IMG/VR virus record: IMGVR_UViG_2703718823_000011
Origin: a virus
Taxonomy: Duplodnaviria; Heunggongvirae; Uroviricota; Caudoviricetes
Direction: 5' to 3' (one strand)
DNA: 39,014 nt
Made by a program: the position numbers and the translations under genes. The notes beneath the pieces are model-generated. The model was not told the DNA's origin. It searched no databases and worked only from the letters and a program-made list of their open reading frames with translations. This document shows, piece by piece, positions 10,169 through 39,014 of the stretch (position 1 is its first letter; every line of letters begins with the position of its first letter).

Positions 10169-10591
10169 ATGGCTGAAACACAGATGAGCATGTTTGGTGA
10201 CAGCGAACAGCTGCACGCGCTGATTGACCGTCTGGATGACATTCCTGATGATGAGCTGAAAAAGAACTGGCCCGGCACGCTGCGGGACCTGGTTGATGTG
10301 ATCAGTGCTGAACTGCACCGTCAGGGGATTGAACCTGCTCAGGCAGGAATGCTTGCCCGTAAAGTTGCGGCCGCACAGGCCGGGTACATGGGCGGGCGTG
10401 GTTATTATCTCCCGGTCGGTGAATCCCTTTTCACCGAACTGCGCAATAATGAGATTTTTTCCCGCTGGAGCCAGGGCGAAAAAATTGAAACCCTGCGCCG
10501 CCATTACAGGATGTCAGAAACCCAGATTTATACCGTCATACGCGAACAGCGCCGTCTGCATCTGGCAAGAACGCAACCGCCACTTTTCTGA
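10169..10591 (+). CDS. Mor/C-family transcriptional activator
   Basis: 140 aa; GGAGG ribosome-binding site; C-terminal helix-turn-helix region (GGRGYYLP...ETLRRHYRMSETQIYTVIREQRR) resembles Mu Mor/C; last gene before the lysis cassette. Confidence 0.8.
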   Translation: MAETQMSMFGDSEQLHALIDRLDDIPDDELKKNWPGTLRDLVDVISAELHRQGIEPAQAGMLARKVAAAQAGYMGGRGYYLPVGESLFTELRNNEIFSRWSQGEKIETLRRHYRMSETQIYTVIREQRRLHLARTQPPLF

Positions 10592-10662
10592 TATTCCGCA
10601 AAGCCTGCCGCCTTTCCTTCACCGTTACGCTGACTCAGAGAACATCATGAGACAGCGTAACA

Positions 10663-11163
10663 ATGCCAAAACTCCCCGCACCACTGCGTAAAAAGCTGAT
10701 TGCCCTTGTTCTGGCCGGTGCCGGGACGTTCACGATTGCCACGCATTACACCGGTTACTGGGAAGGGAAAGAAAACTCCACGTATATCGATCCCACCGGT
10801 ACACCAACCATCTGTTACGGCCATACCGGCCCGGATGTGAAACCGGGTATGACCCTGACGGATGAAGAATGCCTGGAACTACTGGAAAAGGACATGAAAT
10901 GGGCCTTTGCGGCCATTGATCGGCGTGTTCAGGTGCCGCTTACCCGTGGTCAGACGGTGGCGCTGGCTTCGTGGATCTTCTGGGCTGGTGAAACGAACTT
11001 CCGCAACTCCACGCTTCTGCGCCTGATCAATGCCGGGCAGATGCCCGCGTCCTGTAAGCAGTACATCCGCTGGATTTATTCGAAGGGGGTGAAACTCCCC
11101 GGTCTTGAGGCCCGCCGTTCGGCGGATGAATGGTTATGTCGCTACGATTTGCCGAAAGTCTGA
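10663..11163 (+). CDS. SAR endolysin (lysozyme-like with N-terminal signal-arrest-release domain)
   Basis: 166 aa; Gly/Ala-rich weakly hydrophobic N-terminus LIALVLAGAGTFTIATHY, then a lysozyme motif (YxDPxGxPTICYGHTG) typical of phage T4/P22-type lysozymes. Confidence 0.85.
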   Translation: MPKLPAPLRKKLIALVLAGAGTFTIATHYTGYWEGKENSTYIDPTGTPTICYGHTGPDVKPGMTLTDEECLELLEKDMKWAFAAIDRRVQVPLTRGQTVALASWIFWAGETNFRNSTLLRLINAGQMPASCKQYIRWIYSKGVKLPGLEARRSADEWLCRYDLPKV

Positions 11164-31942: not shown

Positions 31943-32838
31943 TGTATTTTGTCGACAACAATTCAGGTGTGACCGATATGCCACCACTGGCCCCCTCTCA
32001 GGGCACGCAGGTTAAATGGTTTACTGAAGGTGACGGACGCAAAGGGATCAGCCATATCGGTCAGGACTGGCTGAACATCGTGCAGGCAGAGCTGCTTGCC
32101 ATTCTGACAGAAGGAAAGGTTCAGCCGGATAAGGCAAAACTGAACCAGCTGGTGACAGCCATTAAGGCAATCATTGCAGCAAACGCATACAGCCGGAAAA
32201 ACAACCTTAAGGAGATTGCGGATGCAGGTGCAGAAGCACAGGCTGCTGCCCGCCGTCATCTGGGGCTGGGAGGATTATCAGGAAAAGACAGTCTGGCTGC
32301 TGCTGATGTGGGAGCACTGGAGAAATCCCGGAATTTTGACGATGTACTGGATAAACCGACGGCTCGTCTGAATCTTGATGTTTACAGTAAGGGAGAAGGC
32401 GATGCGCGTTATCTGCGCAGGGACCAGAATGGCGCGGATATCCCGGACAAAGGAACCTTTATCAATAACCTCGGTTTACGGGAAACGGTAAATAAGGCGG
32501 CGAATGCCCTGCCATCGGACGGCACCGCTGCGGCAGCAAACAGACTCGCCACCCCAGTAAATATTAATGGTGTTCCTTTCGACGGGACGCGGGATATAAA
32601 CATTACGTCAGGAATGCCGGAATCAACGGCCAATCAGCGTTATGTTACAGGGGTAAGACTGGGAGCGCAGGCATTAAGCAGCGGACTGGAATATAATTAC
32701 TCCCTGTCATCAGGAAATGTGATTACCGGTTTTAAGACTGACGGAGACTGGGAAATGCGTGGTGGTGATGACCGTGTTTATTACAGACAGATACAATATT
32801 GTATTAATGGGAATTGGGTATCCGCTGCAAGTATTTAA
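31942..32838 (+). CDS. Tail fibre protein S: constant N-terminal part plus currently expressed variable C-terminus
   Basis: 298 aa; the crossover site lies at about codon 177; C-terminal part homologous to the inverted cassette at 33515-33896. Confidence 0.8.
   Translation: MYFVDNNSGVTDMPPLAPSQGTQVKWFTEGDGRKGISHIGQDWLNIVQAELLAILTEGKVQPDKAKLNQLVTAIKAIIAANAYSRKNNLKEIADAGAEAQAAARRHLGLGGLSGKDSLAAADVGALEKSRNFDDVLDKPTARLNLDVYSKGEGDARYLRRDQNGADIPDKGTFINNLGLRETVNKAANALPSDGTAAAANRLATPVNINGVPFDGTRDINITSGMPESTANQRYVTGVRLGAQALSSGLEYNYSLSSGNVITGFKTDGDWEMRGGDDRVYYRQIQYCINGNWVSAASI
32459..32484. other. Left recombination site of the invertible segment (gix-like)
   Basis: TTATCAATAACC-TC-GGTTTACGGGAA; near-match to the Mu gix site as recalled (TTATCCAAAACC-TC-GGTTTACAGGAA); inverted homology to 33884-33909. 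Confidence 0.7.
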
Positions 32839-32958
32839 TTAACGGCTCATGGCGTACGGCAGGCAGCGCCTGATATATGCGTTATCTCAGACAACCCCTG
32901 TCCGTATATAGCGATAGTATTATTCCTGTTTTTATCATTGATTCACATGGTGATGTTT

Positions 32959-33480
32959 ATGCAACTGATTAATGTTAAACGATATTACCCGGAAAACACC
33001 CTCTATGGTAATGATGTACAGTATTTTCAGAGTGAAGATGGTAAGGATTTCTACGAGTCCCTGCCATTATTCACCAAAAAATATAAACTTTGTATAACAC
33101 CTGACAGCGGCATTATCTGCTCAATATCACAGGACGCTTCGGCGCTGTATCCTGCGGGGTTCTCTGTGGTTGAAGTCGACGAACTCCCTGAAGGTGCTGA
33201 TATTTCGGGTAACTGGAAGTTTGATAATGGCGTGATCTCCCGTATTCCGGTTAACTACGCAAGAAAACTGGAAGCAATGCGCCAGTTATATCTTAATCAG
33301 GCATATGAAAAAATTAATGACTGGAGAACAGAATTACAGCTGGGCACCATCAGTGATGAAGACAGAGCCGCACTTACCCGATGGATGGCATACATCAGTC
33401 AGGTGAAAAAAATGGAACCATCCGCCATTAAAACTGAAGCTGAATTTGATGCCATTAAATGGCCCGAACAGCCTGAATAA
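32959..33480 (+). CDS. Tail fibre assembly protein (Mu U-like)
   Basis: Ends ...KWPEQPE like Mu U as recalled; AT-rich; start uncertain (track TTG 32938; ATGs at 32947, 32953, 32959). Confidence 0.75.
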   Translation: MQLINVKRYYPENTLYGNDVQYFQSEDGKDFYESLPLFTKKYKLCITPDSGIICSISQDASALYPAGFSVVEVDELPEGADISGNWKFDNGVISRIPVNYARKLEAMRQLYLNQAYEKINDWRTELQLGTISDEDRAALTRWMAYISQVKKMEPSAIKTEAEFDAIKWPEQPE

Positions 33481-33514: not shown

Positions 33515-33896
33515 TCAGACAGATGAAACTGTACGCCATGCATTACTGATATATATCTGCACAGGACGGAAATAAACCCCGCCAATGTTATCGGCAGAGT
33601 TTTTTCCTGTTTCCTGCACGTTAATACCGGAAAGCATACAACCGGAAGGCGCACTGTAATTCCATGACATTTCATTGCCTCCGGGTGAATGATAGCTCTG
33701 TGCTCCAAGCTGAACGTTCTGTACATACCGGCCATCTGCGGTTGACTGCGTCATTCCTGACGTGATGTTGATATCCTGCGTCCCGTCGAAAGGAACACCA
33801 TTAATATTTACTGGGGTGGCGAGTCTGTTTGCTGCCACGGCGGTTCCACCCGATGGCAGGGCATCAGCAGCCTTATTTACCGTTTCCCGTAAACCG
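33515..33896 (-). CDS. Alternative tail fibre C-terminal cassette (S'v), no own start; expressed only after inversion
   Basis: Minus-strand frame open from the right recombination site to the stop at 33515; encodes AANRLATPVNINGVPFDGTQDINITSGM... paralogous to the S C-terminus, then diverges. Confidence 0.7.
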
Positions 33897-33909
33897 AGGT
33901 TTCAGGGAT
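33884..33909. other. Right recombination site of the invertible segment (gix-like)
   Basis: TTCCCGTAAACC-GA-GGTTTCAGGGAT, inverted relative to the left site. Confidence 0.7.
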
Positions 33910-33963: not shown

Positions 33964-34524
33964 ATGCTGATTGGCTATATACGCGTATCAACAAATGACC
34001 AGAACACAGGTTTACAAAGAAATGCGCTGGAATGTGCAGGATGTGAGCAGATTTTTGAAGATAAAATGAGCGGAAAAACAACGCAGCGGCCGGGACTGAA
34101 GCGGGCACTGAAGAAACTAAAACCCGGTGACACGCTGATGGTCTGGAAACTGGACAGGCTGGGGCGCAGTATGCGCCACCTTGTTGCGCTGACAGATGAA
34201 TTACAGCAACAGGGGATAAATTTTCGTAGTCTTACTGACAGCATTGATACGTCAACCCCCATGGGGCGCTTCTTTTTTCACATAATGGGTGCGCTGGCAG
34301 AAATGGAGCGTGAATTGATTGTCGAACGGACACGGGCTGGTCTTACAGCTGCCCGTGAAAGGGGACGAACCGGCGGCAGACCCCGTCGTCTCACGCAGGA
34401 ACAATACGAGCAGGTCGGGCGTTTACTGGCCGGGGGGGTCAGCCGAAGACAGGTGGCACTTATTTTTGATATCGGCCTTTCAACCCTTTATCGTTATTAT
34501 CCTGCGAGCGTTTTGGAAAAATAA
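33964..34524 (+). CDS. gin: Serine DNA invertase Gin (Hin/Gin/Cin family)
   Basis: 186 aa; MLIGYIRVSTNDQN... with catalytic serine context, near-colinear with Gin as recalled; C-terminal helix-turn-helix. Confidence 0.95.
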   Translation: MLIGYIRVSTNDQNTGLQRNALECAGCEQIFEDKMSGKTTQRPGLKRALKKLKPGDTLMVWKLDRLGRSMRHLVALTDELQQQGINFRSLTDSIDTSTPMGRFFFHIMGALAEMERELIVERTRAGLTAARERGRTGGRPRRLTQEQYEQVGRLLAGGVSRRQVALIFDIGLSTLYRYYPASVLEK

Positions 34525-34614
34525 GACGCTCCCTTTGTTGGGCCTTTACTGAATTAACGCAAAATGGCGTTTATCGGTCTGTGGATATGATAATTCTGTT
34601 TATTCAGGAACAGG

Positions 34615-36696
34615 ATGAATATTATGACGTCCAAATGGGTTCAACTATCATCAATGCCCGGAAACTTTACCGTTAAAGTTTCCGGTGGTACAGCGGCATT
34701 TCTTGAGGCTCCCTTTCCTCCGGCTGAAACGAAAGGAGGTATGACATTTGCTGACTGTCTCATCAGTTTTAATACACGGGATTGCCTGTGGGTAAGGCCA
34801 GTATCCGGTGATCCGAACGTGGAAATTACCGGAGCGGGTATTGGTGCTGTCATTCCGTTAAGTGCTGATGTTGCCGGTACTACTGAACCGTCAGACTGGA
34901 ACAATGCGGAAACATACACTTCCTCAGCAGGAGATAAAGTTGCAGGTCAAACTCCGTCCTGGTATTACGTGGTTGTTATTGCTGGTCAGTCGAATGCATC
35001 GTCATTTGGTGAAGGTCTTCCTTTGCCTGATACCTATGATCGACCTGATCCACGTATTAAACAGCTGGCTCGCCGTAACACGGTTACACCTGGCGGGGTT
35101 GAATGCGCCTACAACGATATAATTCCGGCAGATCACTGTCTTCATGATGTGCTGGATATGAGTAACCATAATCATCCAAAAGCAGATCTTTCAAAAGGTC
35201 AGTATGGTTGTGTCGGCCAGGGTTTGCATATTGCAAAAAAACTCCTGCCCTTTATCCCGGAAGAGGCTGGTATCCTTCTGGTTCCCTGTGCCAGAGGAGG
35301 CTCTGCATTTACCGATGGTGCTGATGGTGAATTTACTGAAGCTTCCGGAGCAACATCTGCATCATCGCGCTGGGGAGTCAATAAACCTTTGTTCAGCGAT
35401 CTTGTTAACCGAACAAAAGCGGCTCTCAGCAGTAACCCCAGAAATATTCTCCTGTCCGTTGTCTGGATGCAGGGCGAGAATGATCTGAAAACAGGAAAAC
35501 ATGCTGAACATTCCGGTCTGTTTGTGACGATGGTCGAAACATTCAGGCGTGAACTTTCGGCTTTTTCTGCGCAATCTCCAGCCGGAGATATGGCTTCTGT
35601 ACCGTGGATCTGTGGTGATACGACGTATTACTGGAAAAATACATATCCAGAACAATACAAAGCTGTTTATGGCAAATATGCTAATGAAGCAAAGAACATT
35701 CACTTTGTTCCATTTGTTGTGGATGAAAATGGAAAAAATGTACCGACAAATAATCCAGATGAAGACCCGGATATTCCAGGTATTGGCTATTATGGTGCCA
35801 TAAGTCGCGATTCGACTAACTGGACATCAAACGACAGGGCAAGCCATTTCAGTTCATGGGCGCGCCGTGGAATTATTTCAGACCGTCTGGCAACAGCGAT
35901 TCTGACATTGTCAGGACAAAAATCTGCTTTCTTCCGCGGTGTAACGGCAACAGAACATTCTGATACCGGTAAGAGTGAGCCTGAACCCACCGGGGATGTG
36001 AAGGACGTGAGCGATCAGATGAAGATCATCGTTTCGTATACTGCAAACGCCCCGACAGAACCAATGAAAGATCAGGGGTGGAATGCGGCTTCCGGAAAAG
36101 CAACCTTTGTCACGGATGCTGCTGCAACAGGTGGTAACAAAGCGTTAAGGGTGAATAAAGCGCCTAACAGCATGGCCTCATGGAAAATGTATCATCCGAT
36201 CACAGCTGATAATGCCAGGGATTTGTTCGCCAGAGGTGGTGATATTTCCCTCCGTTTCAAAATTCCATCGGATGCGGGCATTGCGGAAAACCGGTATGGT
36301 GTTGGTATTTACTGGGCTGTAAGTAACTGGCCTGACGGTGACGGAAAAAATAACCTCATCGCATCATGTTTCCTGCAAACGGATTCAGCTAACCTGAATG
36401 TGATGTATCACAAAGGGAGCGGAAGTCAACAGATAGGATCGTATGGTGTCTTTGATCATGAATGGCATACGCTCTCGTTACGGTTTGCAGGTGGTAATAG
36501 CATGAGTGTTACCCCAGTTCTGGACGGGAAAGATGGTGAACCATTTGAACTTGTGAAGTGGGTGAATGCCGGGTTCACGGTGGATCAACTGACACTGACC
36601 GATATTACCGGCAATGCAGCCACTTACCCGATGTTGTTTGACACAATTAAAGTGCAGGTTAACGATGCGGTCTCTCCGTCTAATGTGAATAAATGA
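34615..36696 (+). CDS. SASA/SGNH-type carbohydrate O-acetylesterase with lectin-like C-terminal domain (prophage cargo; NanS-p-like candidate)
   Basis: 693 aa; GQSN nucleophile motif (about 34984-34995), ...CARGGSAF..., WMQGENDL block (about 35467-35487); C-terminal ~180 aa resembles a concanavalin/LamG-type jelly roll; own ribosome-binding site; AT-richer than the structural genes. Confidence 0.8.
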   Translation: MNIMTSKWVQLSSMPGNFTVKVSGGTAAFLEAPFPPAETKGGMTFADCLISFNTRDCLWVRPVSGDPNVEITGAGIGAVIPLSADVAGTTEPSDWNNAETYTSSAGDKVAGQTPSWYYVVVIAGQSNASSFGEGLPLPDTYDRPDPRIKQLARRNTVTPGGVECAYNDIIPADHCLHDVLDMSNHNHPKADLSKGQYGCVGQGLHIAKKLLPFIPEEAGILLVPCARGGSAFTDGADGEFTEASGATSASSRWGVNKPLFSDLVNRTKAALSSNPRNILLSVVWMQGENDLKTGKHAEHSGLFVTMVETFRRELSAFSAQSPAGDMASVPWICGDTTYYWKNTYPEQYKAVYGKYANEAKNIHFVPFVVDENGKNVPTNNPDEDPDIPGIGYYGAISRDSTNWTSNDRASHFSSWARRGIISDRLATAILTLSGQKSAFFRGVTATEHSDTGKSEPEPTGDVKDVSDQMKIIVSYTANAPTEPMKDQGWNAASGKATFVTDAAATGGNKALRVNKAPNSMASWKMYHPITADNARDLFARGGDISLRFKIPSDAGIAENRYGVGIYWAVSNWPDGDGKNNLIASCFLQTDSANLNVMYHKGSGSQQIGSYGVFDHEWHTLSLRFAGGNSMSVTPVLDGKDGEPFELVKWVNAGFTVDQLTLTDITGNAATYPMLFDTIKVQVNDAVSPSNVNK

Positions 36697-36731: not shown

Positions 36732-36911
36732 ATGCCAATACTACATACATTTATGCTTTATTTTTGCACGTGTGTGTGTCTACTTTATCTCCTCAGCGGA
36801 GGTTACAAAATTATCCGAAATTATTTTCGAAATAAAATTGATGCAGCCGCAGAGGAAAAGATAAAAAGCGGTGCTGTAATGCCGCAGCCGAAAGACTCCG
36901 GTCAGATTTAA
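36732..36911 (+). CDS. Small hydrophobic protein (cargo island)
   Basis: About 59 aa from ATG 36732 (track GTG 36726); N-terminal hydrophobic segment PILHTFMLYFCTCVCLLYLL. Confidence 0.45.
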   Translation: MPILHTFMLYFCTCVCLLYLLSGGYKIIRNYFRNKIDAAAEEKIKSGAVMPQPKDSGQI

Positions 36912-36946: not shown

Positions 36947-37192
36947 ATGCCAGAGATTAAAGGCACGGTTACTGAAGAGCTTGTCAAACAGGCACTTTAT
37001 TCTGAAGAAGTGAACCGCGTGCTGAAGGCGCAGGTTCGCAAGGATTTTGAGGCACAAATCGACGCATATGTTGATGAAGTGCTGGCCCGAATGGTTGGCC
37101 ATTCTCCGGCTGAAAACAGCACGGAGAATGAGCCTCAGCCCGTAGAGCAACCAGAGCCGGTTCAGCCCGGAACTGACAGTGCCATGATGTAA
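36947..37192 (+). CDS. Small acidic hypothetical protein (cargo island)
   Basis: 81 aa; strong ribosome-binding site AAAGGAAAGGAGA. Confidence 0.5.
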   Translation: MPEIKGTVTEELVKQALYSEEVNRVLKAQVRKDFEAQIDAYVDEVLARMVGHSPAENSTENEPQPVEQPEPVQPGTDSAMM

Positions 37193-37266
37193 CAATACAA
37201 ACCGACAGCTTCTCCTGTCGGTTTGATTTTCATGGGCGATGTATATACCAGTCAGAGGAAATAATC

Positions 37267-37467
37267 ATGGACAAGAACAAAAAGCAGCCCGATACCAAAG
37301 GTCTGGAAATATTAAGCGCAGAAATTATCAATGCGCTACGTTCAGGACTTGATGAAAATACATTACAGGATCGAAACTTCACCACTGCAATGTGGATAGC
37401 GATGCAGATCCTGTGTACCCCAAGATGCGCTATTTTTGCGGTTCGTGAGGGTCAGTTGACTCGCTGA
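37267..37467 (+). CDS. Small hypothetical protein (cargo island)
   Basis: 66 aa; ribosome-binding site GAGGAAATAATC-ATG. Confidence 0.45.
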   Translation: MDKNKKQPDTKGLEILSAEIINALRSGLDENTLQDRNFTTAMWIAMQILCTPRCAIFAVREGQLTR

Positions 37468-37636
37468 TTGCCCGAATTACATCAGAAAAGCACGCGTTCC
37501 ATAATTGCATAGCTGATGAATCACCAGCTGTATGAAAAGAGGTAAAGACACAACTGGTGGATGTCATTGCTGCAATTGTGATATCAGCTGCAATTCGCGC
37601 AGCCTGTAACTTTTGGTCGGTGGTCAGTTTATCCAT
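37430..37636 (-). CDS. Small hypothetical protein, convergent with and overlapping 37267-37467
   Basis: About 68 aa from ATG at 37634-37636 (MDKLTTDQ...) with AGGAG 4 nt upstream; track ORF extends to 37660; 3' ends overlap by 38 bp. Confidence 0.4.
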   Translation of the reverse strand: MDKLTTDQKLQAARIAADITIAAMTSTSCVFTSFHTAGDSSAMQLWNACFSDVIRAISESTDPHEPQK

Positions 37637-37710
37637 TTTCTCCTGCCTGAACAGATGCATCTCTGCTTTACAGGAGGCCGGGGAATATCATAGGATACAC
37701 CACGAGCTCA

Positions 37711-37870
37711 GAGTGAAGCATTGATGCAGTTTTTTACAGATTGACCCAGAATAGTTCGCGCTATCTGAGTCGCCATTTATGTAGTCCCGAAGTAAAGCAT
37801 TGATGCAAACTTGTCTAAATCGGCCCAGCATAGTTCCAGCTATGCTGGGTTTCCCTTTTATGTAGTATCC
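37711..37870. repeat. Tandem direct repeat, 2 x ~80 bp, about 70 percent identical
   Basis: Copy 1 37711-37790, copy 2 37791-37870; shared blocks AAGCATTGATGCA, CCCAG.ATAGTTC, TTTATGTAGT. Confidence 0.6.
37824..37865 (+). terminator. Terminator-like hairpin within repeat copy 2
   Basis: CCCAGCATAG-ttccag-CTATGCTGGG (perfect 10 bp stem) followed by TTTCCCTTTTATG; the equivalent in copy 1 is degenerate. Confidence 0.5.
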
Positions 37871-37911
37871 TGTTGATTTGAAACATACTACATATACGCG
37901 CGATCCTACCT

Positions 37912-37951
37912 TCACTGGATAAAAAGTCAATAAAATGATCATTTTATGATC
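37912..37951. promoter_or_regulatory. Cluster of three GATC (Dam) sites upstream of com/mom
   Basis: GATC at 37912, 37937 and 37948 within 40 bp; two further GATC at 38059 and 38072. Confidence 0.45.
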
Positions 37952-38054
37952 GTTTTCACCGCCTAACTCTTCGTTTTCTTTAAGTAAATAATCACCGCCC
38001 TGAATCATTGTTGATGACTTTTCAATCTATTTGTTGTATCAATTAAACAAATCG

Positions 38055-38079
38055 AATCGATCGTTTTTGTCGATCGATT
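38055..38079. promoter_or_regulatory. Perfect 9 bp inverted repeat AATCGATCG-N7-CGATCGATT upstream of com
   Basis: Arms at 38055-38063 and 38071-38079, each containing a GATC; 44 bp upstream of the com ATG. Confidence 0.4.
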
Positions 38080-38122: not shown

Positions 38123-38323
38123 ATGTATCGAAACATACGGTGCCGACACTGCAATAAGCTACTGGCACGGGCCAGTTTCAGTTATCTGGAAGTAAAATGT
38201 CCGCGCTGTAAAACCCTCAATCAAATCACATCTCCGAGCGCCACAGAGCACCCCACATACACAAGGAAATCCTGTCGTGGGGAACAGAAAGCAAGTCACA
38301 TCCCGTATCATCAGCACGCCTGA
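38123..38323 (+). CDS. com: Com zinc-finger translational activator of mom
   Basis: [30 protein letters not shown]... matches Mu Com (M.SIRC.NCNKLL...SF...E.RCPRCK); AGGAGG upstream; track start 38078 is TTG. Confidence 0.85.
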
Positions 38324-39014
38324 ACTTATTCGCTATAACGACAATATCGTTGGTTATGGTTCCCGTGAGTTGCGGGTTGAGACAATAAGTTGCTGGCTGG
38401 CCAGACTGGTTATCGTCAATAAACATTACAGCCACCGTTTCGTAAATAACTCCTACCTTCATCTGGGCATATTTTCAGAACGGGAACTTGTTGGCGTAAT
38501 GCAATGGGGTTACGCCCTTAACCCAAACAGTGGTGCACGCGTCGTAACGGGTACGCAGAACCGAGAATATATGGAGCTGAACCGGCTATGGATGCATGAC
38601 TGTATGCCGAGAAATTCCGAATCAAGGGCAATCAGTTACGCGCTCAAGCTAATCAGGCAGCTTTATCCGCAGGTACAGTGGGTTCAGTCGTTTGCAGATG
38701 AGCGTTGTGGCTGTCTTGGTGTCGTGTATCAGGCAAGCAATTTTGATTATGTAGGCAGCCATGAAACAATATTCTATGAACTTGATGGCGAGTGGTATCA
38801 CGAGATTTGCAGGAATGCCATTAAACGAGGCGGACAACGAGGTGAACATCTGAGGGCTAATATCGACAGAGCCAGTGTGCATAAGTTCCGACAGTTTCGT
38901 TACATCCGGTTTCTGAACAAGAGGGCCAGAAAACGCCTCAACACAAAGCTATTCAAAGTCCAGCCTTACCCAAAACCACAAACAGTTAAAACTGGTTTGA
39001 AAGAGAGTGAATGA
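38277..39014 (+). CDS. mom: Mom-like DNA modification protein
   Basis: 245 aa ORF starting (GTG) inside the 3' end of com as in Mu com/mom; size close to Mu Mom (about 231 aa); Dam-site cluster upstream; stop is the last codon of the window. Confidence 0.7.

Follow-up and report, generated by a model that had tools for sequence, protein, structure and literature searches.

A predicted NanS-p-type sialate O-acetylesterase with a non-DUF1737 N-terminal module in a Mu-like prophage of Shiga-toxigenic Escherichia coli

The DNA that we analysed, a stretch of 39,014 nucleotides (hereafter, the window), is 100% identical to a prophage in bcsA of E. coli STEC2018-607. It contains Mu-like genes for gpT (19695-20642), protein I, Mu F, GemA, a Mor/C activator and GpP, together with a Gin-type resolvase, Com and Mom. 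Identity and gene content together mark the carrier as a Mu-like prophage of Shiga-toxigenic E. coli. Between gin and com/mom, in surroundings where morons are typically found, an open reading frame follows gin at a distance of 90 bp. It occupies exactly the interval listed in Table 1 and encodes the protein described here; in all Mu-type loci this gene directly follows the tail-fibre and G-inversion module. RefSeq WP_062850926.1 ("DUF6645 domain-containing protein"), from an identical E. coli locus, has the same frame and start. Most homologues, however, begin at the second in-frame ATG ("MTSKW..."), so that the true start is uncertain by three codons. A perfect palindrome with a 12-bp stem was also observed inside the coding region (34658-34685); it was considered as a regulatory element and rejected, as it is not conserved in the type-2 or Salmonella alleles.

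Table 1. Features of the esterase locus, with positions counted from the first letter of the window
Feature	Position	Strand	Evidence or remark
Predicted Mor/C-family late activator site, dyad TTTAC-N9-GCAAA	34545..34563	+	layout and conservation
Conserved block CTGAATTAACGCAAAA within the predicted activator site	34549-34564	+	
-10-like hexamer TATGAT	34586..34591	+	no recognisable -35 17 bp upstream
NanS-p-type sialate O-acetylesterase gene (predicted)	34615..36696	+	693 aa; alternative start 34624
N-terminal module, aa ~5-82	34627..34860	+	predicted small all-beta cupin-like barrel
Linker 1, aa 83-112	34861..34950	+	low-complexity, predicted disordered
NanS-type SASA/SGNH catalytic domain, aa 113-431	34951..35907	+	3PT5 alignment, 56% identity
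Ser126 codon	34990-34992	+	GQSN block, aa 124-127
Gly228/229 codons	35296-35301	+	RGGS, aa 227-230
Q286-G-E codons	35470-35478	+	QGE(ND), aa 286-290
His411 codon	35845-35847	+	block V, RASH, aa 408-411
Linker 2, aa 432-471	35908..36027	+	not conserved between alleles
Lectin-like jelly-roll domain (DUF6645), aa 472-683	36028..36663	+	putative carbohydrate-binding module
DUF1378 companion gene	36732..36911	+	Pfam E=2.2e-23; phrog_494, function unknown
DUF826 companion gene	36947..37192	+	Pfam E=2.9e-15; phrog_311, function unknown
Hairpin, 11-bp stem	37198..37225		directly after DUF826; terminator-like scan match on both strands

The central part of the protein gave a match to the Pfam profile of the SASA family, SGNH hydrolases related to CAZy CE6 (PF03629, E=3.9e-12, 46.7 bits vs. 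a cut-off of 24.8), whereas phrog_143 was matched over the full length (E=1.6e-260). The crystal structure of E. coli NanS (PDB 3PT5) was matched over aa 113-431 with E=7.8e-114, and the esterase core was 56.2% identical to it over 315 residues. The first-pass annotation of this DNA had claimed a SASA-type SGNH hydrolase on the strength of a GQSN block, a GG block and QGEND. The claim held: all three blocks are present, together with a fourth, RASH, which it had not listed. In the alignment, G124-Q-S126-N (block I) falls on the GQSN of NanS, with the nucleophile serine on the NanS serine; R-G228-G229-S and M-Q286-G-E (blocks II and III) are the same as in "CRGGSAF" and "WMQGE" of NanS; and R-A-S-H411 (block V) is aligned with RSSH. 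NanS lacks the block V Asp. The GQSN / (H)QGE oxyanion arrangement is specific to SASA enzymes (PMC9487903), and block V of NanS-p reads "RSSH or RASH" (PMC10462455). For the catalytic details we relied on reviews and on the alignment. Chromosomal NanS (YjhS) resembles the window protein in the whole fold, in all SGNH/SASA blocks, in the Ser-His arrangement and in the GQSN / QGE oxyanion network, but it is a single-domain protein of 326 aa belonging to the nan regulon, whereas the window protein is phage-borne and has added N- and C-terminal domains. Judged by its domains and catalytic residues, the window protein is a NanS-p-type sialate O-acetylesterase. Esterase activity on Neu5,9Ac2 and on the O-acetyl sialic acids of mucins would be expected from the 56% identity to characterised NanS and about 56% to characterised NanS-p. 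The window allele is the most divergent among the alleles retrieved: across aa 240-360 and 440-693 it is no more than 40-60% identical to any of the others, and for this reason its substrate preference could differ.

A C-terminal jelly-roll-like domain had also been claimed, and it was recovered both by Pfam (DUF6645, E=1.5e-32) and by the structure of the NanS-p C-terminal domain (PDB 6YP6, E=2.6e-51 over aa 472-683). NanS-p had been named as the comparator, and the catalytic and the C-terminal domains both match solved NanS or NanS-p structures. The identity to the crystallised C-domain of NanS-p from Stx phage phi24B is 47.3%. The sugar site proposed for vb_24B_21 consists of Y510, Y515, Y540 and F611 (PMC10462455); the equivalent residues here are Y561, Y566, F586 and F654, aromatic at all four positions. 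We considered whether the window C-domain was a recent import from lambdoid NanS-p (P0077/P0078) and discarded the idea, as the stretches of raised identity to these proteins fall in the catalytic core and not in the C-domain. Of the two linkers, the one preceding the catalytic domain is variable and rich in Ser/Thr/Pro/Gly in all alleles, with pLDDT <50 for aa 84-100; in the region of the other, a 40-aa block (aa 441-480) shows 5-25% identity to other alleles.

With the NanS-p enzymes of Stx phages the window protein shares a catalytic domain that is 80-90% identical over aa 121-240 (~56% overall), the DUF6645 domain with its aromatic sugar-site positions, the DUF1378 and DUF826 genes downstream, the lack of a signal peptide and an STEC prophage as carrier. 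It departs from them at the N-terminus, where the lambdoid homologues align from aa ~110-114 onward only. A module of about 80 aa, followed by a longer linker, here takes the place of DUF1737 and is not homologous to it. PF08410 (DUF1737) gave no match in the window protein even at E<=1, and the probability assigned by hhalign to the pair of N-module and DUF1737 was 0.2%. The fold predicted by AlphaFold2 with a 10-sequence alignment is all-beta, vs. a helix plus three strands in DUF1737; a single-sequence prediction of aa 1-125 was discarded (pLDDT 36.6). Fold searches with the module returned weak cupin-like matches only, with no resemblance to any known decoration or anchor protein. The N-terminal 112 aa matched no other open reading frame of the prophage (best E=0.53), and no tail-fibre match was found with Pfam or PHROGs; as far as these comparisons go, the earlier statement that a tail-fibre anchor is lacking stands. 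So does the absence of an obvious signal peptide: the maximum Kyte-Doolittle hydropathy over 11 residues was 1.13 in the first 30 residues, with one K/R within the first 10, and no signal peptide or membrane segment was found in the esterase.

The N-module is rare, being found in Enterobacteriaceae only and each time fused to a NanS-p-type esterase. Its variants that could be placed, down to 27% identity in Salmonella, were all in Mu-type prophages, and the DUF1737 forms examined were all lambdoid. Word-indexed homologue searches with the module gave fragments only, single-sequence scans gave near-identical E. coli viral contigs only, and single-sequence scans with the Salmonella variant gave nothing. 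A 979-aa repetitive fibre-like protein (P0008) was matched at aa 69-103 (E=1.5e-4, three repeats), which we judged to be a low-complexity or repeat artefact.

The esterase gene is followed by two small companions. The DUF1378 protein has one N-terminal hydrophobic helix (hydropathy 2.07 over 19 aa), and the DUF826 protein is acidic. The window has only three perfect hairpins with stems of 10 bp or more, and the one beyond these two genes is likely the end of the cassette transcript. The order esterase-DUF1378-DUF826 is the same in the five Mu-type loci for which sequence beyond the esterase was compared, and it also occurs in an Stx1 phage, between stxB and the holin gene; DUF1378 and DUF826 accompany the esterase in both lambdoid and Mu-type phages. 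The DNA of the esterase core is 65-67% identical between the two lineages and the proteins have diverged, which indicates that the cassette is old in both. The Mu-like carrier, this three-gene cassette in common with Stx phages and the N-terminal part of ~112 aa in place of DUF1737 are additions to the first-pass annotation. The esterase with the window-type N-module was found in 205 of 5,426 complete E. coli genomes (about 4%), and its carriers include many O157:H7, O26 and O111 strains. The isolates of Mu, D108 and SfMu type in the phage collection lack the gene, and in the literature searched we found no discussion of the Mu-borne form with the window-type N-module.

Upstream of the gene we observed a composite consisting of a dyad, 22 bp and the hexamer TATGAT, which resembles a late promoter of Mu. 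The arms TTTAC/GCAAA pair at 4 of 5 positions, in a pattern that was partly defined post hoc. From the centre of the dyad down to the -10 hexamer the distance is 32 bp, which puts the centre at about -44, and the hexamer 17 bp upstream of TATGAT is AATGGC. In the C-dependent promoters of Mu, the C sites are centred at -43.5 and the -10 is present without a typical -35 (PMC2582627). The putative esterase unit would thus share with the Mu late units (P_lys, P_I, P_P, P_mom) a -10 that lacks a -35 and a candidate dyad, imperfect and centred some 44 bp ahead of the predicted start near 34598; the comparison with Mu C sites is one of geometry, and the sequence of the motif is this phage's own. It would be unlike them in being an additional unit, with no equivalent in Mu itself. 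Five diverged Mu-type loci all have block CTGAATTAACGCAAAA unchanged between flanks that vary, and the -10 hexamer in the other Mu-type loci reads TATGAT, TATGCT or TATTAT. Dyad and -10 are kept upstream of the esterase in loci L003, L020, L021 and L023; the Salmonella locus has no matching site.

Two further copies of this layout exist, one at 10584-10631, between lys and the gene of the C-like activator, ORF 10169-10591 (the position of P_lys), the other at 18508-18555, upstream of gene I (the position of P_I). The window contains exactly three such composites, all on the + strand. First-order Markov simulations gave a mean of 0.09 composites per window and none of 300 reached three, a significance that is overstated because the pattern was partly refined once the three sites had been seen. 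The remaining two late promoters of Mu lie upstream of P and of com/mom; at neither place did the window show a matching site. A generic sigma-70 promoter scan (8 sites vs. 9.6 in shuffles) was set aside. The layout and position of the composite suggest late, C-dependent transcription of the esterase.

We regard it as likely that the protein is a three-module esterase of the NanS-p type which is expressed late under a C-type activator, is released at lysis and provides lysogens with deacetylated sialic acid; late lytic expression with release at lysis is the most likely role. The protein would be made in the cytoplasm, without a signal peptide. In its SASA/SGNH domain Ser126 would act as the nucleophile and His411 as the base, and the oxyanion hole would be formed by Gln125 and Gly228/229, oriented by Q286-G-E. 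On intestinal mucins, the enzyme would free sialic acids such as Neu5,9Ac2 of their 9-O-acetyl (and 7/8-O-acetyl) groups, a specificity suggested by the characterised homologues: NanS and NanS-p act as deacetylases on Neu5,9Ac2 and on the sialic acids of mucins, and they sustain growth on Neu5,9Ac2 (reviewed in PMC8065619 and PMC8319020). The lectin-like C-domain may direct the enzyme to glycans. The esterase is the first gene of the cassette and would probably have a promoter of its own, switched on late in the lytic cycle by the C-type activator of the prophage; the enzyme would get outside upon cell lysis. Deacetylated sialic acid would then become available to surviving lysogens, and the enzyme may possibly help particles cope with mucus as well.

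The first-pass annotation had left three roles side by side: a released enzyme, a lysogenic modifier of surface glycans and a virion-associated side fibre. The released enzyme is favoured by the absence of a signal peptide and by the predicted late promoter, the modifier is disfavoured and the side fibre found no support. Expression in the lysogen, with deacetylation of the cell's own O-antigen or capsule and altered recognition by phages or the immune system, seems very improbable to us. Expression of this kind might come from gin, which is expressed in lysogens in Mu; the gene lies just downstream of gin, in moron-typical surroundings, and the hairpin that ends gin has a poor T-run in the terminator-like scan, so that read-through is possible. 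LPS O-acetyl groups are also a conceivable target of NanS-p (PMC8065619). However, it is hard to see how a protein with neither a signal peptide nor a membrane segment would get to the cell surface; the catalytic domain shares 56% identity with an enzyme specific for sialic acid, and the upstream activator-type layout is common to late-operon positions. The homologues in Stx phages belong to the late genes, and their induction together with stx is strong (PMC8065619). We give hardly any credence to a tail-associated esterase, like a side fibre or tailspike, that would deacetylate a bacterial surface receptor in adsorption. The position of the gene after the tail-fibre and G-inversion module would suit such an enzyme, and binding of bacterial glycans by the lectin-like domain is conceivable. 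Yet no tail-fibre, tailspike or baseplate-attachment domain was detected by Pfam or PHROGs, features of a trimeric coiled coil or beta-helix are absent, and in lambdoid phages the enzyme and its carbohydrate-binding module are distant from the tail genes and adjoin the lysis genes; the phi24B protein was located on the capsid rather than on the tail (2026 preprint).

Display on the virion is a different matter, as it is compatible with the enzymatic part of the reading that we prefer and differs from it only in deployment. Here the N-module would be an anchor on the capsid or tail of Mu-type particles, a functional substitute for the DUF1737 of phi24B, and the particles would carry a mucin-binding deacetylase, at least transiently. 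According to a 2026 preprint, a hexamer of DUF1737 from phi24B gp84 (NanS-p) attaches to the capsid hexons, after which cleavage removes the enzyme part; self-processing is tentatively linked there to "SSP" motifs. In the window protein the position of DUF1737 is held by a non-homologous folded module and then a flexible linker, an arrangement of small N-domain, flexible linker and glycan-active part like that of the capsid decorations (the phi24B gp84 N-domain and T4 Hoc). The exclusive fusion of the module to NanS-p-type esterases, its Mu-type carriers as opposed to the lambdoid ones of DUF1737 in all cases examined, and a predicted late promoter that would co-express the esterase with structural genes point in the same direction. 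Nevertheless we consider virion display unlikely. Vertical descent in one phage lineage explains the co-occurrence of module and phage type equally well, the fold matches are weak and cupin-like, and no similarity of the module was found to known decoration or anchor proteins, in structure or sequence, or to any other protein of this prophage. The "SSP" motifs, moreover, are absent from the window allele (the O157 allele has one), and the Mu, D108 and SfMu-type isolates do without the gene.

The setting of the window enzyme differs from that of its relatives in Stx phages. Its carrier is a transposable Mu-type myovirus and not a lambdoid phage, and its gene lies between gin and com/mom, whereas that of the Stx phages lies between stx and the lysis genes. 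The latter is controlled by Q antitermination from pR', whereas control by a Mor/C-family activator is predicted for the former. The Mu-like Sp18 was reported not to be mitomycin-inducible (PMC2669165), and hence the conditions of induction would differ from those of Stx-phage NanS-p. NanS-p esterases are regarded as factors of fitness or virulence by which STEC can feed on O-acetylated mucin sialic acids, and these enzymes have so far been studied on lambdoid Stx-type prophages only. The Mu-borne form would add esterase copies that are differently regulated, by a Mu C-type activator and, going by the Sp18 data, not SOS-inducible. The swapped N-module is also a natural experiment on the claim that the N-domain of NanS-p anchors it to the capsid. 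If the module does not bind particles, the window protein is a routine new allele of a known moron; if it does bind Mu-type particles, the idea of phages displaying mucus-active enzymes would be generalised. In the widest form of this proposal, which we hold to be unlikely, the module would be an undescribed virion anchor of Mu-type particles, swapped for DUF1737 when the cassette was transferred between phage lineages, and with the cassette Mu-like phages would have five C-dependent late transcription units. NanS-p esterases would then form a family of enzymes displayed on capsids and targeted to mucus, whose anchors are interchangeable and specific to the phage.

The first-pass annotation had placed the esterase gene at 34615..36696, and this position proved exact, with an ORF on the plus strand and a product of 693 aa; the start codon is ambiguous by three codons, and most homologues begin at the equivalent of 34624 ('MTSKW...'). 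An identical protein is found in E. coli STEC2018-607 (WP_062850926.1, labelled 'DUF6645 domain-containing protein' in RefSeq). The description of the product as a SASA-type SGNH hydrolase with a jelly-roll C-terminal domain held up against two solved structures. Residues 113-431 align with NanS/YjhS of E. coli at 56.2% identity over 315 residues (3PT5; E=7.8e-114), and the counterpart of residues 472-683 is the C-terminal domain crystallised from NanS-p (6YP6; E=2.6e-51, 47.3% identity over 205 residues), the prophage sialate O-acetylesterase with which a comparison had been proposed. Pfam and PHROGs searches gave the matches listed in the table, while the NCBIfam search of the esterase gave none.

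The motifs singled out in the annotation, GQSN (124-127), RGGS (227-230) and QGEND (286-290), align residue for residue with NanS. Both the SASA HMM match (PF03629) and the nucleophile serine, on which that proposal had been made to depend, are present. The block V histidine, in RASH (408-411), is also aligned with the NanS block. The four blocks match the SASA-specific active-site arrangement (PMC9487903) and the 'RSSH or RASH' reading of block V in NanS-p (PMC10462455). In the C-domain of the phi24B enzyme, the aromatic residues Y510, Y515, Y540 and F611 were proposed as the sugar-binding site (PMC10462455); their equivalents in the alignment are Y561, Y566, F586 and F654, all aromatic. As the annotation had noted for an obvious signal peptide, no signal-peptide-like hydrophobic segment was seen. 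The protein has the catalytic and C-domain features of canonical NanS-p, and lacks two descriptive ones, namely DUF1737 and a location in the lambdoid late region.

Features of the esterase, its cassette and its surroundings
Feature	Position	Strand	Remarks
SASA, PF03629	aa 119-316		Pfam, E=3.9e-12
DUF6645, PF20350	aa 540-647		Pfam, E=1.5e-32
phrog_143	aa 65-686		PHROGs, E=1.6e-260; entry without assigned function
Candidate P_lys site	10584-10631	+	between the Mor/C-family activator gene (10169-10591) and the lysozyme gene (10663-11163); dyad + 22 nt + TAYGCT
Candidate P_I site	18508-18555	+	just upstream of gene I (18562); dyad + 22 nt + TAYGCT
gin	33964-34524		upstream neighbour of the esterase gene
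DUF1378	36732-36911		3' of the esterase gene
DUF826	36947-37192		3' of DUF1378
Hairpin	37198-37225		11-bp stem, after DUF826
com/mom	38123-39014		right-hand flank

Canonical NanS-p carries DUF1737 at its N-terminus, whereas Pfam finds no such domain in the window esterase, and the alignments of lambdoid NanS-p with this protein all begin only at residue ~110-114. The search for full-length homologues returned two classes: DUF1737+SASA+DUF6645 proteins, with a query coverage of 82-84%, and proteins of 656-693 aa without DUF1737, with a coverage of 97-100%. The N-terminal module is rare, since an exhaustive HMMER search gave five matches among 1.84 billion representatives; the informative ones are Enterobacteriaceae fragments that run on into the AGQSN esterase block. 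One of the five, a repeat protein, was judged spurious. The window-type module was found in 205 of 5,426 complete E. coli genomes. All variants that were placed genomically (window type, O157 type, type-2 allele P0049, alleles P0050 and P0047, and a Salmonella form with an identity of just 27-29%) lie in a Mu-type prophage, directly 3' of the baseplate/tail-fibre module, with or without Gin, and the same companion genes are present in every placed variant whose downstream sequence is covered.

In essence, the window spans a complete Mu-type prophage, with genes for GemA, a Mor/C-family activator, lysozyme, Mu F, Mu protein I, the major head protein gpT, GpP and other Mu baseplate proteins, a G-type invertible tail-fibre segment, a Gin-type resolvase, Com and Mom. 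It is 100% identical to a prophage within bcsA of the STEC isolate STEC2018-607; there (L002, NZ_CP075697.1) the cellulose synthase gene is truncated by the prophage, beyond the window's right end. Related copies occur in O157:H7 and other STEC genomes, and some even lie within Stx phages, where the label is 'inserted Mu-like phage'. Two Japanese STEC strains (L001, LC727881.1) have a related Mu-like phage within an Stx-converting prophage, so that one composite element holds both a lambdoid and a Mu-type esterase gene. Classical Mu is not known to have a gene at the position between gin and com/mom that the esterase gene occupies. Consistent with this, the N-terminal part matched only two phage records, both of Stx phages with an inserted Mu-like phage.

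The invertible segment is bounded by an inverted repeat pair (32467-32645 and 33723-33901, 179 nt, 88% complementary), and between its arms lie a single tail-fibre-assembly gene (32938-33480, plus strand) and an alternative fibre C-terminus (33515-33838, minus strand); in the inverted state the assembly gene would point away from the fibre operon. The stretch from the cassette to com holds a conserved 66-aa ORF (37267-37467, plus strand), present in every Mu-type locus examined, two minus-strand ORFs (37430-37660, phrog_25148, and 37688-38008, phrog_26524; both entries without assigned function) given in RefSeq as a frameshifted pseudogene, and a second strong hairpin (37822-37851). A GATC-rich palindromic stretch, AATCGATCGTTTTTGTCGATCGATT (38055-38079), lies 44 nt 5' of the com start (38123) and recalls the Dam-methylation/OxyR control region of Mu mom. 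In the prophage with the type-2 allele (L021/L022), a C5 DNA methyltransferase gene (PF00145, 11792-12844) replaces Com and Mom.

The esterase, DUF1378 and DUF826 genes are found in the same order in a lambdoid Stx1 phage, between stxB and the holin gene, and this order is also reported in PMC10462455. The esterase core DNA of the window and of the lambdoid copy is only 65-67% identical, and the two small proteins are clearly homologous and diverged, which indicates a long history of the cassette in each lineage and no recent transfer. The sharing of an old cassette by both lineages argues that the three genes work together, although the PHROGs entries of the two small proteins carry no assigned function.

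When the region upstream of the esterase start codon was aligned across five diverged Mu-type loci, invariant blocks stood out amid variable sequence: CTGAAT-N3-CGCAAAA, a TATGAT-like hexamer 21 nt downstream, with no -35 in the alignment, and then the ribosome-binding region. A search of the window with the first block gave a one-mismatch copy just 5' of gene I (18512-18527) and a three-mismatch copy in the 71-bp gap between the activator and lysozyme genes (10588-10603), both with the 22-nt spacing seen at the esterase, to TATGCT or TACGCT. The composite TGA-N5-CGCAA-N22-25-TAnnnT has exactly three matches in 39 kb, all on the plus strand, as compared to a mean of 0.09 in Markov simulations (0 of 300 reached three), for a pattern partly refined after the sites had been seen. 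It is retained 5' of the esterase in L003, L020, L021 and L023 and absent from the lambdoid and Salmonella loci; no equivalent site was found upstream of P or com in the window, nor was a dyad like that of the three sites seen between the GATC-rich stretch and com. This imperfect dyad, TTTnC-N9-GCAAA, is centred 32-33 bp 5' of the -10 hexamer, that is at about -44/-45 if transcription starts 7 nt past the hexamer. Each of the Mu late promoters P_lys, P_I, P_P and P_mom has a -10 hexamer and no typical -35, and the activator C recognises an imperfect dyad of 16 bp with its centre at -43.5, inside the required -52 to -34 region (PMC2582627). Because the additional sites occupy the P_lys and P_I positions, we infer that the cassette is an extra late transcription unit under a C-type activator.

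With the candidate -10 of gene I ending just 6 nt short of the annotated ATG, either the mRNA would be leaderless or the true start lies further downstream; the Pfam match starts at residue 31. In L020 (P0050) and L023 (P0047), no Gin/resolvase gene is called in the interval from the tail-fibre module to the esterase, yet both loci retain the end of a gin-like sequence and the conserved promoter-like block, which points to loss of gin with retention of the esterase unit. Within the esterase coding region (codons PGNFTVKVSGG), a perfect palindrome, CCGGAAACTTTA-CCGT-TAAAGTTTCCGG (34658-34685), forms the longest perfect hairpin in the 39-kb window (12-bp stem), with no T-run after it; the O157 allele has it unchanged, the type-2 and Salmonella alleles have not retained it, and it is probably allele-specific or due to chance.

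The best-supported reading is that of a sialate O-acetylesterase of the NanS-p type whose C-domain binds carbohydrate. Cytoplasmic synthesis late in lytic growth would be followed by release through cell lysis; the free enzyme would then remove acetyl groups from Neu5,9Ac2 and related sialic acids of mucins, to the benefit of sibling lysogens, as shown for lambdoid NanS-p (PMC8065619, PMC8319020). A role in lysogenic conversion, as a modifier of the cell surface, is unlikely, because the protein has no export signal of any kind and its predicted promoter is of the late type. Nor is there support for a tail side fibre: the protein has no fibre or attachment domain, and in lambdoid phages the gene lies far from the tail genes. 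The predicted late expression of the esterase parallels that of lambdoid nanS-p, which is co-induced with stx (PMC8065619), but the trigger would differ, considering that Sp18, the Mu-like prophage of O157, is reported to be apparently intact and to undergo spontaneous induction, but not to be inducible by mitomycin (PMC2669165).

According to a 2026 preprint (10.64898/2026.04.10.717836), gp84 of phi24B, which is NanS-p, is a capsid-decoration protein whose DUF1737 binds central hexons as a hexamer and whose catalytic and lectin domains are apparently cleaved off after release. If this is right, a Mu-lineage-specific module occupies the anchor position in the window protein, and might serve as an alternative anchor for Mu-type particles. 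The module type tracks the phage type; however, this correlation is accounted for equally well by common descent, and the searches found neither a structural resemblance of the module to known anchors nor any similarity to other prophage proteins, and no conserved 'SSP' processing motif in the esterase. For these reasons we regard such an anchoring function as rather improbable.

Nothing is new about the enzyme family, its C-domain or its biological role, and databases already label the window protein 'sialate O-acetylesterase / DUF6645'. Neither a NanS-p carried by a Mu-type phage nor its distinct N-terminal module, DUF6645 or a late promoter for the esterase cassette was found in the literature searched. 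The main interest lies in the N-terminal module, for which an anchor swap is a testable hypothesis.
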